From: Escherichia phage pEC-N1203-2Af.1
Sequence record: OQ540978.1
Direction: 5' to 3' (one strand)
DNA: 64,000 nt
Position numbers and translations under genes: made by a program. Under the pieces are notes generated by a model, which saw nothing but the letters and a program-made list of their open reading frames with translations, searched no databases and was not told where the DNA came from. How positions within the stretch are numbered: position 1 is the first letter of the stretch; each line of letters opens with the position of its first letter. Below are positions 48,561 to 55,401 of the stretch, one piece after another.

Positions 48561-48607
48561 GTAGTAGTAAATTGAAGCCTATTGATTGAGTGATTGGAGT
48601 GATAAAA

Positions 48608-48781
48608 ATGATGATTCTAGTAATGATGGCAATGGCTATAGTGTTTCCTTTACTTGTTCTGATCGTTTGTGAAGTAGTTGAGCCGTTCGCTGATAGCAAG
48701 TTAAGCCCGAAAGATAAGCCTAGTAAGTTTAATGGCGCTACTTTTAGCAGAAAGAAAGTTAGAAAGATGGTTGCAATGTAA
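48608..48781 (+). CDS. small membrane protein
   Basis: Hydrophobic MMILVMMAMAIVFPLLVLIV. Confidence 0.35.
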   Translation: MMILVMMAMAIVFPLLVLIVCEVVEPFADSKLSPKDKPSKFNGATFSRKKVRKMVAM

Positions 48782-48836
48782 GAAAGCGTGTCCTATTATA
48801 TCCCTACCGTCCTGATTTTCTGAATAGCAAGGATTT

Positions 48837-49001
48837 ATGATGGGTATTAAATTCCGTGTTATGGTTGACCTTGAAGGATTCGGCGCTCCTGATGAGTTAG
48901 CTGGTATCTTCTTATCTATGGATACCGCTATATTGTGCGCTGATTCCATTCGTGAAATTGAAGGCTTGAACACCTATATTATTGAATCTATCGAGGATTA
49001 A
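48837..49001 (+). CDS. hypothetical small protein
   Basis: 54-aa ORF translated by hand; AAGGA upstream. Confidence 0.35.
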   Translation: MMGIKFRVMVDLEGFGAPDELAGIFLSMDTAILCADSIREIEGLNTYIIESIED

Positions 49002-49004
49002 ATC

Positions 49005-49496
49005 ATGGCTAAAATAATGCAAGTAGTAAATCTGGCAAGTTATGCACTAGTCGCCGCGATCGGTGTTAGTGCGCTGGTATCTTCCTTTCCTGATAAGGCT
49101 GTTGCTAGTCCTGCTCCTGCAACTGATGCGGCTAGTGTCTTCGTTAGTTCCATCAATAAAGGTTGGATGATTTGCAACGGTGCTGATAGTGACACCAATC
49201 AGATCGTTTTAAAGGTTAAATTCAGTAACGTTTCCCGTGATGGTCTGGTCGTTAGTACCAAAACACTGGACAATCAGCCTAACAGTGATCTAGTTCTCAA
49301 GCGTACTGATAACGATGCGGATATGGTGACTTATGGCACTGTACAACGTTACAGCCATGCGAAAGCTGTCACGAATCTGGTCAGTTATGGCCCGGTTAAG
49401 GAGTCGATGATCGCCACCACGGTTTACAATAACGCTGATAACGCTGTTTATACCGTTCACGTTAATCTAGCCAACTGTATTAAGGCTAGTAAGTAA
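49005..49496 (+). CDS. secreted/periplasmic protein (signal peptide)
   Basis: N-terminal hydrophobic signal-like segment ending ...AVASPAPA; higher GC than the late genes. Confidence 0.5.
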   Translation: MAKIMQVVNLASYALVAAIGVSALVSSFPDKAVASPAPATDAASVFVSSINKGWMICNGADSDTNQIVLKVKFSNVSRDGLVVSTKTLDNQPNSDLVLKRTDNDADMVTYGTVQRYSHAKAVTNLVSYGPVKESMIATTVYNNADNAVYTVHVNLANCIKASK

Positions 49497-49522
49497 ATAA
49501 CTTATTTTTGGGAGTGTAAAAA

Positions 49523-49789
49523 ATGACTATCAAAGAAATTAGATTATCTAATGGCTTTTCTTGTTTTGTTGGCGATCAATCTATCATGTTTAACACGCTT
49601 GATGGTCAGCTTACAGTGCCTATTATCACTTTTTGCAAAATGGACTTTCAACCGGCTAGAAACTGGTTAGCATTTGCTGGCCTTGAAATCACCCGCGATG
49701 ATTTTCGTTCAATTTATTTTGACGGTGGCTTATCACTGGCGAATCTGCTCAATCATGGACTAATTGAGGGTGATACCAATGGGGAATGA
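49523..49789 (+). CDS. hypothetical protein
   Basis: 88-aa ORF. Confidence 0.45.
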   Translation: MTIKEIRLSNGFSCFVGDQSIMFNTLDGQLTVPIITFCKMDFQPARNWLAFAGLEITRDDFRSIYFDGGLSLANLLNHGLIEGDTNGE

Positions 49790-49977
49790 TTGTTTCTGGC
49801 GTTGCTTATTCGTTGTTACAGTGGCGTTATTCGTCGCTGATATGCTTTATTCTTACATCCTTTGAGGTCCGGTTGTGTTGTTTCTGTTTTTGTTTGCCAT
49901 TGGCTTCCTTTCTTTAAACTATTTATTGATTGTTGCCGCTTTCGATATTCTTAAACTAATTAAAGAGGTTTATTGCT

Positions 49978-50343
49978 ATGTGGTTTATTAAATTCATCGT
50001 TAAGATGGTTGTAGGCTTTTTTCTGGTTGTTCTTCTGTTAGGTGTCCTGCTATCGGCTATGGGTAGCGTTAAGGCTGCAACGTTTTCCCCTGATACGGTT
50101 GACGGTTTACAGTGTACCTATCTCGTAGAAAACTATGAAACTGGTAAAAAGTCACCTAAAGTTATTATTTTGCATGTAAATGATTTTGATCATGTGCAAT
50201 CAGATAGTAAAACTATTCTACTGGTAAACGAAACTACCGGTAAACAAATCACGGTCAATCACTTGATGCGCTCATCGTTGACGCTCTTTGATGAGTCCAT
50301 GAATGAAATTGAGTCCGGTAATGGTCAATGTGTAAATCCATAG
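49978..50343 (+). CDS. secreted or membrane-anchored protein
   Basis: N-terminal hydrophobic segment VGFFLVVLLLGVLLSAMGSVKA. Confidence 0.5.
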   Translation: MWFIKFIVKMVVGFFLVVLLLGVLLSAMGSVKAATFSPDTVDGLQCTYLVENYETGKKSPKVIILHVNDFDHVQSDSKTILLVNETTGKQITVNHLMRSSLTLFDESMNEIESGNGQCVNP

Positions 50344-50418
50344 GCTTAATCTTTCTCCTTTATTGTGCCGTAGTCATGCCTATGGTCATAATCTATCTGA
50401 TGTTTTAAAGCCTCCTGA

Positions 50419-50446
50419 AAGCCTCGCCATGAGGCTTTTTTCTTTT
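50419..50446 (+). terminator. rho-independent terminator
   Basis: AAGCCTC-GCCAT-GAGGCTT then TTTTTCTTTT. Confidence 0.7.
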
Positions 50447-53423: not shown

Positions 53424-53644
53424 TATTCAGTAATAATTTTGGCAAGTGTCCTATTTGTGAGAAACATCGCAGCACGGGAAACCATAGAAAATGTAGTAAG
53501 ATATTACAGCGCCAACGTGATGATACTCACTGGGATACTGTGCACACCAACCAACGTAAGGAAGAAGTTAGAAAGATGGCGGTTAAAGCGTCATTTGCTC
53601 AATCCACCCGTATTGAACATATTCAAAGGTATCAAGCATTATGA
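53420..53644 (+). CDS. hypothetical Cys/His-containing protein
   Basis: CPICEKHRSTGNHRKC; ATGA overlap with upstream gene. Confidence 0.4.
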   Translation: MIFSNNFGKCPICEKHRSTGNHRKCSKILQRQRDDTHWDTVHTNQRKEEVRKMAVKASFAQSTRIEHIQRYQAL

Positions 53645-53850
53645 TCACTAATATTTCAGAGTTTAAGAAAGCGCCATCTCGTTTGTTAGGCCGTCGTGTT
53701 ATATATCTTTACAGCAATAAAGGTAAATGTACAACCGGACAAATTACAACGGTGAGCAGTACCAACAAAACATTACTAAAGTTATGCGTAACTATGGATG
53801 ATGGTACAATCCTTCTACGCAGTTGGAAGTCGTTTAGTTTACTTGATTAA
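53641..53850 (+). CDS. hypothetical protein
   Basis: 69-aa ORF, ATGA overlap. Confidence 0.4.
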   Translation: MITNISEFKKAPSRLLGRRVIYLYSNKGKCTTGQITTVSSTNKTLLKLCVTMDDGTILLRSWKSFSLLD

Positions 53851-53920
53851 GTTATTTGTTCAAGCCCGTCGCCTTGATGGGCTTGCCCGATATAATTTAT
53901 CACTAAAAAGGAATAAGATT

Positions 53921-54364
53921 GTGACTAAATCTAAAATCAGCATGAAAGGCGGGCGTTGTTTTTCTATCTCTGAGCTGGAGAAAGAGAAACCAAAGGCAAC
54001 CAATCACGTCAGTAAGCGCAGTTTAAAACGTCGTGCTGCAAAGGCTGAGGCTGAATCTCATATTCCTTCTAGTGTGGCAAAGCGTGTAGGCCATCGCGTT
54101 CATCGTGCTGATGCGTTATTGTTAGCCGATCATAAACGTTCTTTATTAAAGAGCGGGGGAGCTAAAACAGAAGAGGAGAAGAAGTTAGAAATCTTCTGTA
54201 ATGGTCGCACCCGTGGTAAGCAGAAGTTTAAAGGTAGCACGAAAGACCCTCAAGCATTCCCTAAAAGTAGCCAGTGTGCGCCTGATGTTTTCTACGCAGA
54301 CAGTAAACACAAATGGGGCGTTGAGAAATACATTGACCCCATCAAAGAGGCAAGGGTTAAGTAG
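53921..54364 (+). CDS. basic Lys/Arg-rich protein (possible nucleic-acid binding)
   Basis: GTG start after AAGGAATAAG; start uncertain (ATG 53942 alternative). Confidence 0.4.
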   Translation: MTKSKISMKGGRCFSISELEKEKPKATNHVSKRSLKRRAAKAEAESHIPSSVAKRVGHRVHRADALLLADHKRSLLKSGGAKTEEEKKLEIFCNGRTRGKQKFKGSTKDPQAFPKSSQCAPDVFYADSKHKWGVEKYIDPIKEARVK

Positions 54365-54445
54365 TAGGACTATAGACCCCTCTTTTAGTACTATGACGCT
54401 CTTTCTGTAGCGTCGTGCCCTCTCCCCCATTTGAAGCTTCCGCAT

Positions 54446-54468
54446 AGCCGCCTTTGAGCGGCTTTTTG
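54446..54468 (+). terminator. rho-independent terminator
   Basis: AGCCGC-CTTTGA-GCGGCT then TTTTT. Confidence 0.65.
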
Positions 54469-54530
54469 CGTTGCTGTAAGTACATTTGCGAGTGTATTTA
54501 TAGCAACGGTCATGTGTTGCTTTCAGGTTT

Positions 54531-54557
54531 GCCCCGGCTACGGCTGGGGCTTTTTTA
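54531..54557 (+). terminator. rho-independent terminator (second of tandem pair)
   Basis: GCCCCGGC-TACG-GCTGGGGC then TTTTTT. Confidence 0.7.
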
Positions 54558-54580
54558 TATCTATTGTATAGGAATTTTCT

Positions 54581-54898
54581 ATGAAAAACCCATTCGAGCT
54601 GATAAGTACAGATCCTGTAGAGGTCAACATGCTTTCATTGAAGTCCAAACTGGTCATCATTCTTACGAAGCTAATTCGTGAGCAGGGTTGGTCGCAGTGT
54701 GTTGCCGCAGAGAAGCTAGGTGTTAGCCAGCCAAGGATTAGTAACCTTATGAATGGACAGCTTTCAAAGTTCTCCGTCGATACATTGTTGGAAATGGTTT
54801 TCAAGATGGGGTATAAGCTGGACATGGACTTCACTCCACTAAACACCAGATCGCCACTGGCAATATTTGTAAAAGGTGATGGTGTAAGTTACAAATAG
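54581..54898 (+). CDS. XRE-family HTH transcriptional regulator (antitoxin-like HTH)
   Basis: EQGWSQCVAAEKLGVSQPRISNLMNGQLSKFSVDTLLEMVFKMGYKLDM is a classic XRE helix-turn-helix. Confidence 0.65.
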   Translation: MKNPFELISTDPVEVNMLSLKSKLVIILTKLIREQGWSQCVAAEKLGVSQPRISNLMNGQLSKFSVDTLLEMVFKMGYKLDMDFTPLNTRSPLAIFVKGDGVSYK

Positions 54899-55011
54899 TA
54901 AGATAACACCTATTCCGAAAGGATGGGTGTCACTATAAGCATCTTTTCGAGGGGTGTTTATGGAAACAACAAAACAGGAGGTAGCAAGTTCTGATAACAA
55001 CGGCCCAGCTA

Positions 55012-55401
55012 ATGTTGACATTGACTATTTATTATGAGGCAGGGAACCAGCCAACCGCATGTAAGGCTTTAGTTGCGGATACCGTGATAAATAGAATGGC
55101 CCAACGAAAACTGACCGCTGAACAGGTGATAAGACAAAAGAACCAGTTTGAGTGGATTCCGGTACTATTAAAACAGGAGAAACCTTATAAACGTTATGTA
55201 AAGCTGATTCGTGATAAGAATCCGATGACTAAGCAAGCCATTGGAGAAAGCGAGCGACTTGCTAAACGTGCCCTTAAGAAGAATTATGTTCCGCTGTATA
55301 GTGGGACTTACTTTCAGAGTAAGAGCGAAGGGGTGCCAAAATGGTATGCCAATCCTATGTATTGTGGTGATTTAGTGTTCGATAATAGCTCTAGGGAATA
55401 A
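55012..55401 (+). CDS. cell-wall hydrolase, SleB-like (Hydrolase_2)
   Basis: IYYEAGNQPTACKALVADTVINRMAQRK resembles the SleB-family N-terminal motif as recalled. Confidence 0.5.
   Translation: MLTLTIYYEAGNQPTACKALVADTVINRMAQRKLTAEQVIRQKNQFEWIPVLLKQEKPYKRYVKLIRDKNPMTKQAIGESERLAKRALKKNYVPLYSGTYFQSKSEGVPKWYANPMYCGDLVFDNSSRE

Follow-up and report, generated by a model that had tools for sequence, protein, structure and literature searches.

The early region of the phiEco32-like phage pEC-N1203-2Af.1: a promoter/BoxA array and a conserved structured leader RNA

The block at positions 48590-55401 of a 64,000-nucleotide (nt) stretch of Escherichia phage pEC-N1203-2Af.1 (record OQ540978.1; the whole stretch is hereafter the window) is best explained, with a rough probability of 0.7 for the explanation as a whole, as the promoter-proximal end of a conserved early transcription unit transcribed by sigma-70 RNA polymerase of the host. 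In its middle, an array of strong promoters and BoxA elements is followed by a conserved, structured and non-coding leader RNA of about 0.9 kb, which the original prediction, made from the letters alone, had overlooked within 1.8 kb poor in open reading frames (ORFs). That prediction had instead described the block as a GC-rich, compositionally distinct early segment coding for secreted proteins, a regulator and a hydrolase. The compositional island is not a real feature, and the interest of the block lies in the overlooked RNA and the BoxA array, not in a GC-rich island of envelope genes. All coordinates below are those of the window, and genes are named after their phiEco32 counterparts.

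The promoter/BoxA array and the leader RNA

The apparent spacer at 50344-52184 is 82-95% identical in about 98 phage records, where it is almost never annotated. It consists of two parts, the promoter/BoxA array and then the leader, with the following features.

50603-50630 and 51080-51107, + strand: weaker promoter candidates, from sequence inspection
50715-50742 and 50934-50961, + strand: strong sigma-70 promoters, TTGACA-16-TATAAT, 12/12 consensus matches
51239-51267, + strand: strong sigma-70 promoter, TTGACA-17-CATAAT, 11/12
50667-50679, 50886-50898, 50994-51006, 51122-51134 and 51360-51372, + strand: BoxA elements, from a 13-mer scan
51330-51349, + strand: hairpin supported by covariation, 10 nt 5' of the final BoxA, in the boxB-then-boxA order of rRNA (rrn) operons
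51275-52193, + strand: untranslated structured leader RNA, about 920 nt, between the last promoter and the start codon of gp124 (ATG 52194), entering the gp124 ribosome-binding site (RBS)
about 51373-51672, 51693-51970 and 51971-52172, + strand: leader domains of the consensus structure, with long-range helices

The 13-mer CGCTCTTTAAHAA occurs five times on the + strand against 0.28 expected. The five array motifs read CGCTCTTTAA[A/C/T]AA, and each is an exact match, at 50668, 50887, 50995, 51123 and 51361, to GYTCTTTAANA, the functional gamma-proteobacterial BoxA consensus (Baniulyte et al. 2017, PMC5725501). This consensus is found eight times in the window, against 0.67 expected, five of these within 700 nt of the + strand, and each array BoxA lies on the transcribed strand, 8-137 nt 3' of a predicted start site. 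The boxA promoter array of the original prediction is thus real, as promoter, repeat and consensus scans agree. Two of its modules form an exact 80-nt direct duplication (50667-50746 = 50886-50965, period 219 nt), each copy with one BoxA and one promoter.

The array is kept in 13 of 13 relatives, with three to five promoters and four to six BoxA-like motifs (counting a non-consensus copy at -510), and this varying number suggests that promoter-BoxA modules expand and contract by unequal recombination. Its fixed elements, shared by the genera Kuravirus and Suseptimavirus, are the last promoter (at about -950 relative to gp124) and the BoxA copies at about -1065 and -830; at the position of the 51080 candidate, SU7, TH34 and EK010 have a promoter with a 5/6 match in its -10 element. 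Three promoters in the spacer were already noted in the SU10 paper (PMC4281155). A sixth boxA-like motif at 51685 (GCTATTT) was rejected as functional, as it breaks the consensus and is base-paired inside helices. The ORF at 50787-50960 and the minus-strand ORFs within the array and leader were rejected as genes, because indels in the leader shift the frame and the array varies among relatives.

The leader does not behave like coding sequence. It holds no + strand ORF of at least 40 amino acids (aa), with 22-30 stops per frame, and in an alignment of 13 phages its substitutions lack codon periodicity (0.39/0.43/0.43, against 0.25/0.17/0.76 in gp124), 28 of its 33 gap runs not being multiples of three. 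Its nucleotide identity is 0.89, against 0.85 for gp124. The RNAalifold consensus of this alignment contains 261 pairs, and in 67 of these both partners have changed without loss of the pairing; once the pairs spanning the promoter are removed, there remain 254 pairs in 40 helices, with 98.4% of the cells forming standard pairs. When partners were slid by one to three columns, 35-47% of the cells were paired and only 6-11 double-change pairs were left, and column shuffles gave 24±3 such pairs, none of 500 reaching 67. On the opposite strand the paired fraction falls to 88.0%; because of its G-U pairs the structure is thus strand-specific, in agreement with the direction of the promoters. The window's own leader sequence folds with a minimum free energy of -279.8 kcal/mol (z=-6.9). 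In the hairpin before the last BoxA (helix 4), three of seven pairs show compensatory changes, its arms reading AGCGTG/CACGCT, AGTGTG/CACACT, AACGTG/CACGTT or GAGGTG/CACCTC. These results show that the leader is a covariation-supported, non-coding, three-domain structured RNA.

This RNA matches no described family. Rfam 15 at E<=1 gave two chance-level matches over 47500-56500, neither of them within the leader, and no similarity to it was found in 5,426 Escherichia coli genomes. Scans of IMG/VR returned only five close kuravirus contigs; a 15-mer scan of metagenomes gave 120 loci of which only two were true homologues, and motif scans gave kuravirus contigs alone. In the literature searched, the leader is handled as spacer, no paper was found that brings boxA together with phiEco32, and the BoxA array is, as far as searched, undescribed in these phages, a new use of a known mechanism; for both elements, a mention in Savalia 2008 or Pavlova 2012 is possible.

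A sequence that might be an analogous structured leader precedes the first early gene, gp151, of Salmonella phage 7-11 (NC_015938 88864-89916, minus strand): it is about 1 kb long, ORF-free and GC-rich, its gp151 also starts ATGGCTAAA, and the sequence is without the BoxA consensus. An nhmmer profile of the leader found no homology in the right end of 7-11, nor did tblastn with the block proteins give a match there. The antitermination strategy of 7-11 is stated by its authors to be undefined (PMC8948821).

The succession of a BoxA array, a 920-nt untranslated RNA and three terminators suggests the following course of events. Host RNA polymerase would initiate very strongly at three to five tandem promoters with A-rich upstream regions, and the nascent BoxA would recruit NusB/S10 with NusA, NusG and SuhB, as in rRNA operons. 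The polymerase so modified would resist Rho across about 0.9 kb of untranslated RNA; long untranslated RNAs require BoxA to escape Rho, as has been shown for CRISPR arrays (PMC7665894) and in like manner for suhB (PMC5725501). It may also aid the folding of the RNA and the passage through the three intrinsic terminators downstream. The RNA would fold into its three domains and then continue into the gp124 message, and gp124 would be followed on the transcript by the small basic proteins, then the accessory slot, then gp117. The leader RNA itself would act in cis on gp124 expression or be processed into an abundant early RNA, our best guess being that it does both, as a cis-acting leader also processed into a stable, abundant early RNA.

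A further step is more tentative, and we would place it somewhat below even odds. According to it, the leader defines a new class of large structured RNA of Gordonclarkvirinae coliphages, made abundant in the first minutes of infection by an rRNA-operon design (tandem promoters, hairpin and BoxA, and a Nus-modified polymerase acting as antiterminator and chaperone), and having a function of its own beyond that of a gp124 5' untranslated region (UTR), for example as a scaffold, as a catalyst or by titration of a host factor.

Early class, base composition and flanking genes

The window segment 48000-56000 is matched by 102 phage records at 80-95% identity, the match covering 80% or more of the segment in 49 of these records, and by these matches the source phage is assigned to the phiEco32-like podophages (Kuravirus, Gordonclarkvirinae). 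The phiEco32 record is the reverse complement of the window + strand, and the block corresponds to phiEco32 genes 128 down to 117. As the physical right end of phiEco32 maps to about 47997, where its record ends, the window is circularly permuted and the block starts about 0.6 kb from the physical genome terminus. A terminal repeat is expected at about 47997-48200, and a 120-aa minus-strand ORF at 47775-48137, which spans the genome-end point, is probably an assembly artefact and not a gene.

The leftward-transcribed cluster at the right end of phiEco32 is an experimentally defined early class, the most diverse part of the genome and of mostly unknown functions (PMC8948821; PMC4281155). The block shares with it homology and synteny to genes 128-117 and consensus sigma-70 promoters, and it holds no exact copy of TAATGTATA, the promoter motif of the phage sigma factor gp36; its early class is transferred from the phiEco32 assignment. 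The term 'early block' of the original prediction is therefore appropriate, and as an early block it is already-known biology of phiEco32-like phages. All six exact copies of TAATGTATA found by a motif scan of the window lie elsewhere.

5744 (+), 12008 (-), 12080 (+), 21504 (-), 26732 (-) and 39067 (-): exact TAATGTATA motifs, 12008 and 12080 being a divergent pair

Six is also the number of gp36-dependent middle and late promoters experimentally reported for phiEco32. The core genes (gp128C, gp125, gp124 to gp120, gp117 and gp116), the array and the leader stand in the same order in 12 relatives of the two genera, Kuravirus and Suseptimavirus, only the XRE cassette and the small left-end ORFs (orf48590, orf48837 and the gp127 region) being patchy. 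The right boundary at 55401 is arbitrary, since the early string of small ORFs runs on to 64000; a tRNA-Arg gene (anticodon TCT) lies within this string at 58867-58941 (+).

The claim that the block is visibly GC-richer than the late genes fails. The GC content is 0.414 in the block, 0.420 in the window as a whole and 0.433 in the minus-strand structural block at 17001-48200, and the plus-strand blocks on either side have 0.408 and 0.405. Among all windows of the same length, the block stands at the 46th percentile (mean 0.4215, standard deviation 0.0157), and in a 300-nt scan its peaks of 0.46-0.47 are within the range of the late region. Codon usage gives a divided answer: GC at third codon positions (GC3) is slightly above that of the late genes (0.41 vs 0.35, Mann-Whitney p=0.004), but it is indistinguishable from that of the adjacent early genes at 55.4-64 kb (p=0.14), and the pooled codon-usage distance is marginal, being reached by 3.7% of random small-gene sets (p~0.04). 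At first and second positions, GC is lower (0.418 vs 0.476), so that the rise in GC3 is cancelled in the bulk value. GC and codon usage thus scarcely differ from the rest of the genome, and a separately acquired block, as the original prediction implied, is contradicted by the synteny across two genera and by the core gene gp117, which 62 phages share at 99% identity or more. Only the XRE cassette, of about 420 nt, behaves like acquired DNA, its gene being the sole GC3 outlier (0.51).

The individual genes pointed out in the original prediction were recovered: two putative signal-peptide proteins, with charged and hydrophobic leaders ending in AXA-type sites; a basic protein; an antitoxin-type XRE regulator without a toxin partner; and a SleB-like hydrolase. 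To the left of the array lies a mini-operon with the following features.

48608-48781, + strand: small membrane protein, 57 aa, ATG start with a GGAG Shine-Dalgarno sequence (the mechanical ORF starts at GTG 48590, 63 aa)
48771-48799, + strand: candidate sigma-70 promoter for this mini-operon, TTGCAA-17-TATTAT, 9/12, a weak match
49005-49496, + strand: envelope protein like the C-terminal part of gp128 (gp128C-like), 163 aa, with an N-terminal hydrophobic leader or anchor and a predicted eight-stranded beta-barrel domain
49523-49789, + strand: gp127-like small acidic protein, 88 aa, from the ORF list, of a group-specific PHROG, no Pfam match
49978-50343, + strand: gp125-like envelope protein, 121 aa, its N-terminus a hydrophobic leader or anchor
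50417-50439, + strand: intrinsic terminator closing the mini-operon, 10-bp stem and T-run, at the same place in SU7 and SU10 (PMC4281155)

This arrangement agrees with the phiEco32-like layout of one promoter ahead of the first gene at the right end and a terminator behind the fourth gene (SU10 paper, PMC4281155), and the weak promoter would drive a short operon of small membrane or periplasmic proteins, stopping at the terminator. The 48608-48781 protein has an N-terminal transmembrane helix (KD19 maximum 3.08) and a basic tail (isoelectric point, pI, 10.0), and tblastn against 12 relatives matched it only in 172-1, NJ01 and LAMP (74-84% aa identity). The gp128C-like and gp125-like proteins both satisfy the Sec-export pattern of a charged n-region, a hydrophobic core and small residues at -3 and -1; by heuristic calls, the former has K3, KD19 2.06 and a site AVA-SP at 34, and the latter K5/K9, KD19 2.91 and a site VKA-AT at 33.

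The gp128C-like family comprises 90 clusters, with identities of 42-94% and all on contigs of kuravirus size. Its best-conserved part is the hydrophobic segment N9-A23, which suggests a retained, functional membrane anchor and not free secretion; C57 is invariant, C158 is almost so, and residues 40-163 are modelled by AlphaFold (pLDDT 80-89) as an eight-stranded up-and-down beta-barrel. Together, these features suggest a retained membrane anchor followed by a disulfide-bonded periplasmic domain. The gp125-like protein is kept in both genera at 53-94% identity, and the gp127-like protein is variable (49-82%) and absent in Suseptimavirus. These early envelope proteins may serve in exclusion or in remodelling the envelope. 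A 54-aa acidic ORF at 48837-49001 (+), directly 5' of the gp128C-like gene, has no tblastn match in 12 relatives; its phiEco32 counterpart is annotated as the N-terminal half of the 290-aa gp128, the start and extent of which look unsettled.

Product names in the relatives' records (RefSeq, BASEL, GenBank) are often dubious: 'polymerase', 'terminase', 'DNA helicase', 'tail protein' and 'ABC transporter' recur on proteins of 80-270 aa, including the counterparts of 49523-49789, 49978-50343 and 55601-55897, and the first two double as PHROG family names. The label 'polymerase' on the 88-aa gp127-like protein and 'terminase' on the 121-aa gp125-like protein are spurious, both belonging to group-specific PHROGs and lacking domain support. 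For the scanned small-ORF homologues, these labels and those of DNA helicase and ABC transporter were rejected as no Pfam domain supports them; 'tail protein' (gp119, absent from the window and left out of the Pfam scan) was likewise rejected. Scans of the block proteins with NCBIfam and PADLOC gave nothing meaningful.

Downstream of the leader, the block continues as follows.

52194-53093, + strand: gp124-like protein, 299 aa, acidic, with a predicted coiled-coil C-terminal half; ATG 52194, RBS AAAGGTG, PHROG 13018
53116-53143, + strand: intrinsic terminator following gp124, with a 12-bp stem; SU7 has one annotated at the same position
53205-53423, + strand: gp123-like small basic protein (ORF list, PHROG)
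53420-53644, + strand: gp122-like small basic protein with a CxxC motif (ORF list, PHROG)
53641-53850, + strand: gp121-like small basic protein (ORF list, PHROG)
53921-54364, + strand: gp120-like strongly basic protein, 147 aa, pI 10.1, 36 K+R (24%), 78-99% identity in all relatives
54446-54463 and 54531-54550, + strand: two intrinsic terminators after gp120, kept in relatives with empty or filled slots
54560-54982, + strand: accessory cassette of about 420 nt in the slot between gp120 and gp117, with its own RBS; limits from alignment boundaries
54581-54898, + strand: orphan HTH_37 (HigA-like) antitoxin gene, 105 aa, PF13744 E=5.6e-18
55012-55401, + strand: gp117, single-domain Hydrolase_2 (SleB/CwlJ-type) protein, 129 aa, PF07486, 32.2 bits against a gathering cutoff of 27

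The gp124-like protein, the first encoded after the leader, is 81-92% identical in all relatives and has only eight related clusters among 1.84 billion representatives; its Pfam scan gave only coiled-coil-type matches, all below threshold. The gp123-, gp122- and gp121-like proteins (pI 9.6-10.0) are kept in both genera, and the gp120-like protein has no Pfam match. A consensus scan found no strong sigma-70 promoter between the terminators (53116-54550), and downstream expression thus depends on read-through.

The terminator at 54531-54550 is the left edge of a variable slot, in which the XRE cassette lies between this conserved terminator and the ribosome-binding region of gp117, without a recognisable sigma-70 promoter of its own. 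The interval from gp120 to gp117 is 244 nt long when empty. With the XRE gene it measures 648-736 nt, and where gp119/gp118 are present (phiEco32, Bas90), 1013-1120 nt. Among about 100 kuraviruses, the gene is found only in 172-1, SGF2 and SR02. Its nearest non-phage relatives (60-74% aa identity) are on 84 plasmids, mostly mobilizable and of 3-5 kb, from hosts that include Enterobacter, E. coli and Klebsiella. Four contexts were inspected, on three types of E. coli plasmid and one Pectobacterium contig; in each of them, the HTH_37 gene stands tail-to-tail, 15-27 nt away, with a gene for a 110-aa Gp49/HigB toxin, a member of the RelE/ParE superfamily in Pfam family Gp49.

L004 522-1178, L005 531-1188, L006 1597-2274 and L024 1034-1786, convergent: HTH_37/toxin pairs of the inspected loci

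No such toxin was found in the 64-kb window (best tblastn E>1). Judged by these sequence relationships, the phage XRE protein is an orphan antitoxin homologue of plasmid origin and not a toxin-antitoxin module. T4-like Enterobacter phages also carry a copy, almost identical to a protein of plasmid pPSJ-42_6 and apparently inserted into pinA, so that the antitoxin appears to have been captured alone by two unrelated virulent lineages; a contig scan with the XRE protein gave one locus. The 'inhibitor of host Lon protease' of Enterobacter phage EnC15 (L007 1381-1809) is a fusion ORF, its first 40 or so aa matching PinA (PF10465) and the rest being an HTH_37 antitoxin that hardly differs from the pPSJ-42_6 protein. 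Captured without its toxin from small enterobacterial plasmids and made early, the antitoxin would neutralise a cognate Gp49/HigB-type toxin once host shut-off depletes the resident antitoxin, and orphan antitoxins have precedents as phage counter-defence (PMC11257639, PMC13309987). A one-mismatch copy of the gp36 motif, TATTGTATA, lies at 54562-54570 (+), 10 nt 5' of the XRE start, and also in 172-1; it may mean nothing, since one-mismatch copies of TAATGTATA in the window are at chance frequency (24 vs 20.5 expected).

The last gene of the block, gp117, is 100% identical to its phiEco32 counterpart, 85-87% identical in Suseptimavirus and 31-36% identical in 7-11-like, Cronobacter, Proteus and Edwardsiella phages, a distribution pointing to a core gene of a wider C3-morphotype clade. 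Its homologues carry precomputed PF07486 assignments, its PHROG (12974 / phrog_938) is named 'endolysin', and Glu9 is invariant in 11 homologues. The protein consists of the catalytic domain only, without the N-terminal peptidoglycan-binding domain of SleB, and it has no signal peptide, hydrophobic N-terminus or membrane segment; sequence and profile searches of the PDB gave no SleB match, gp117 being too divergent. Besides gp117, phages of the phiEco32 group possess a late holin and a late lysozyme; 7-11 and GAP52 lack both (PMC4281155). Made in the cytoplasm, gp117 would be a SleB-type lytic transglycosylase that acts once the membrane is breached, probably as an auxiliary or ancestral lysin. 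It is an ordinary family member in an unusual position.

Weighing of the explanations

Several points weigh against the reading of the block as an early unit driven by BoxA-assisted host polymerase. We infer the antitermination role of BoxA from sequence and position, and the motif alone is not proof, because exact GYTCTTTAANA matches also occur outside the array, at 54144-54154 (-), 58662-58672 (-) and 44533-44543 (+). The matches at 54144 (antisense in gp120) and 58662 are opposite to early transcription, and that at 44533 is opposite to late-gene transcription. Antitermination of the rrn type is mainly directed against Rho and is only weak on intrinsic terminators, so that read-through at 53116, 54446 and 54531 may be partial or need another factor; the three terminators may simply grade expression. 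The helix predicted to close the leader RNA, between the BoxA region (51354-64) and the Shine-Dalgarno region (52180-90), shows no covariation. As for gp117, the deposited sequence of SleB 4F55 was aligned by hhalign with the gp117 profile; Glu9 falls on the Glu of the YGES motif, which we take to be the catalytic residue, and the following V-I/L-N-R is also aligned, but the match is weak (E=0.0065), and an AlphaFold 2 model of gp117 from 11 close homologues (pLDDT 50) is unusable. Finally, the plasmid HTH_37/toxin pairs are convergent and not co-transcribed, which is atypical for type II systems. The functions of the leader RNA, of the envelope proteins and of gp117 are likewise inferred.

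One alternative holds that the CGCTCTTTAA repeats are DNA-level sites, either operators for a regulator of phage or host or part of a duplicated promoter module, and that the leader is a mere structured 5' UTR tuning the translation or stability of gp124. Two of the five motifs do lie within the exact 80-nt duplication, which contains a promoter, so that some of the repetition is recent duplication, and the 50667 motif is 36 nt 5' of a -35 element; moreover, the RNA enters the gp124 RBS directly, a terminator scan found none between the two, and the predicted long-range helix pairs the boxA region with the Shine-Dalgarno sequence. This helix is, however, the one without covariation, and a leader of 920 nt and 40 helices, better conserved than the coding sequence that follows, is far beyond what known translational leaders need. 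Sites in DNA would also leave aside that all five motifs are on the transcribed strand and exact to a functional consensus, that the copies outside the duplication, at about -1065 and -830, keep their positions in both genera, and that a covarying hairpin stands before the last motif, the arrangement of rrn leaders. We therefore consider this alternative unlikely. Still more doubtful is the explanation closest to the original prediction, a compositionally distinct and probably horizontally acquired module, of which the early secreted proteins and the hydrolase would remodel the envelope or exclude other phages. The bulk GC is not raised, and the GC3 that exceeds that of the late genes is shared with the adjacent early genes; the core genes are syntenic in two genera, gp117 is near-invariant, and acquired-like behaviour is limited to the XRE cassette. 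What speaks for such a module, besides GC3, is the export-type N-termini on two or three proteins, the high variability of the gp128C-like protein, as expected of a protein at the host interface, and the peptidoglycan hydrolase; the latter, lacking a signal peptide, would have an early access to the wall that is left unexplained.

Two further alternatives concern single genes. The XRE protein could be the phage's own transcription regulator, for example a repressor acting on early promoters or on a host gene, instead of an anti-toxin counter-defence: it is a bona fide helix-turn-helix DNA-binding protein (HTH_37, HTH_3), its PHROG relatives are labelled transcriptional regulators, and type II antitoxins are themselves repressors. 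A gene absent from about 96% of syntenic kuraviruses cannot, however, be a member of a core circuit, and both the toxin partner in all four inspected contexts of its plasmid-borne relatives and the independent capture of a near-identical plasmid copy by T4-like Enterobacter phages argue the same way; a regulatory role seems improbable to us. The case of gp117 is closer. That it is the true or ancestral endolysin of the clade, acting at lysis and only incidentally placed in the early cluster, is a serious contender, to which we give a little less than even chances. The 7-11-like, Cronobacter and Proteus homologues are annotated as endolysin or lytic transglycosylase, in phages where the phiEco32-group holin and lysozyme are missing (PMC4281155); the absence of a signal peptide is typical of holin-dependent lysins, and the match to PHROG 938 points the same way. 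Against this, the annotations of the relatives are automated, phiEco32-group phages already own a late lysozyme and holin, and gp117 is located behind early promoters with no phage-sigma promoter nearby.

Comparison with known systems

A spacer left unannotated in about 98 deposited genomes encodes an RNA of about 900 nt, with covariation support comparable to that of established large non-coding RNAs, in phages of E. coli, a host that lends itself readily to genetics, to the use of Nus and Rho mutants and to structural work. The exact BoxA array suggests that a virulent phage borrows the antitermination machinery of host rRNA synthesis. Such borrowing, if true, would be a concrete answer to the problem of long early transcription through untranslated RNA and terminators, which was left open for the related 7-11 (PMC8948821). 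A clean candidate for a counter-defence gene is the orphan HigA-like antitoxin, which kuraviruses and T4-like phages have each captured on their own from small plasmids; if it has this function, cryptic plasmid toxin-antitoxin pairs would act against phage.

The closest parallel to the array and leader is the leader of E. coli rRNA operons (P1/P2, boxB-boxA-boxC, Nus complex), which has in common with it tandem strong sigma-70 promoters with A-rich upstream regions, an exact BoxA, a hairpin just 5' of the last BoxA and a long structured untranslated RNA. The phage array differs in having four to six BoxA copies where each rRNA leader has one, in an RNA that is unlike rRNA or any E. coli sequence and is followed by protein genes, and in that no boxC was identified in it, Nus binding being putative. 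CRISPR arrays (Stringer 2020, PMC7665894) and suhB (Baniulyte 2017, PMC5725501) also have a BoxA soon after the promoter of a long untranslated transcript, presumably blocking Rho, but these are host loci with a single BoxA, whereas the phage has an array of promoter-BoxA modules in the early operon of a virulent phage.

Among phages, the N-nut and put systems of lambda and HK022 achieve early transcription through a host polymerase made termination-resistant, lambda boxA being within nut. They differ from the present case in that no N-like protein or boxB-binding partner was identified, and the order of hairpin then boxA is that of rrn and not of nut. T7 has clustered strong early promoters near its genome end, A1-A3, as has the phage studied here, but no comparable 0.9-kb structured leader. 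As to the RNA itself, large phage- or prophage-associated RNAs of the GOLLD and ROOL type are also several hundred nt long and rich in covarying helices; the leader, which has no Rfam match at E<=1, was detected only in Gordonclarkvirinae coliphages and is transcribed as the leader of an mRNA, not as a stand-alone gene.

The envelope proteins and the two last genes of the block also have counterparts. T5 Llp, T4 Imm and T4 Sp are early envelope or superinfection-exclusion proteins of virulent coliphages. The proteins of the block resemble them in being small, in carrying export signals and in being encoded where the early region begins, and the gp128C-like one among them diversifies rapidly; they differ in that no sequence or specific fold relationship was found, the eight-stranded beta-barrel being generic, and in lacking a lipobox. 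For gp117, the likeness to SleB/CwlJ spore-cortex enzymes and Hydrolase_2 phage lysins consists of a Hydrolase_2 domain above threshold and of the conserved YGE Glu and V-I/L-N-R; the difference is a catalytic domain standing alone, in the early cluster of a phage with another lysozyme. Finally, T4 Dmd is an orphan antitoxin used by a phage as counter-defence. Like the XRE protein, the DarG-like protein of T4-like phages (PMC11257639) and the DarG2-like protein of a chimallivirus (PMC13309987) are accessory antitoxin homologues without toxin, sporadically shared among virulent phages, whereas the one described here is HTH_37/HigA-like and would answer a Gp49/HigB (RelE/ParE) toxin of small plasmids.

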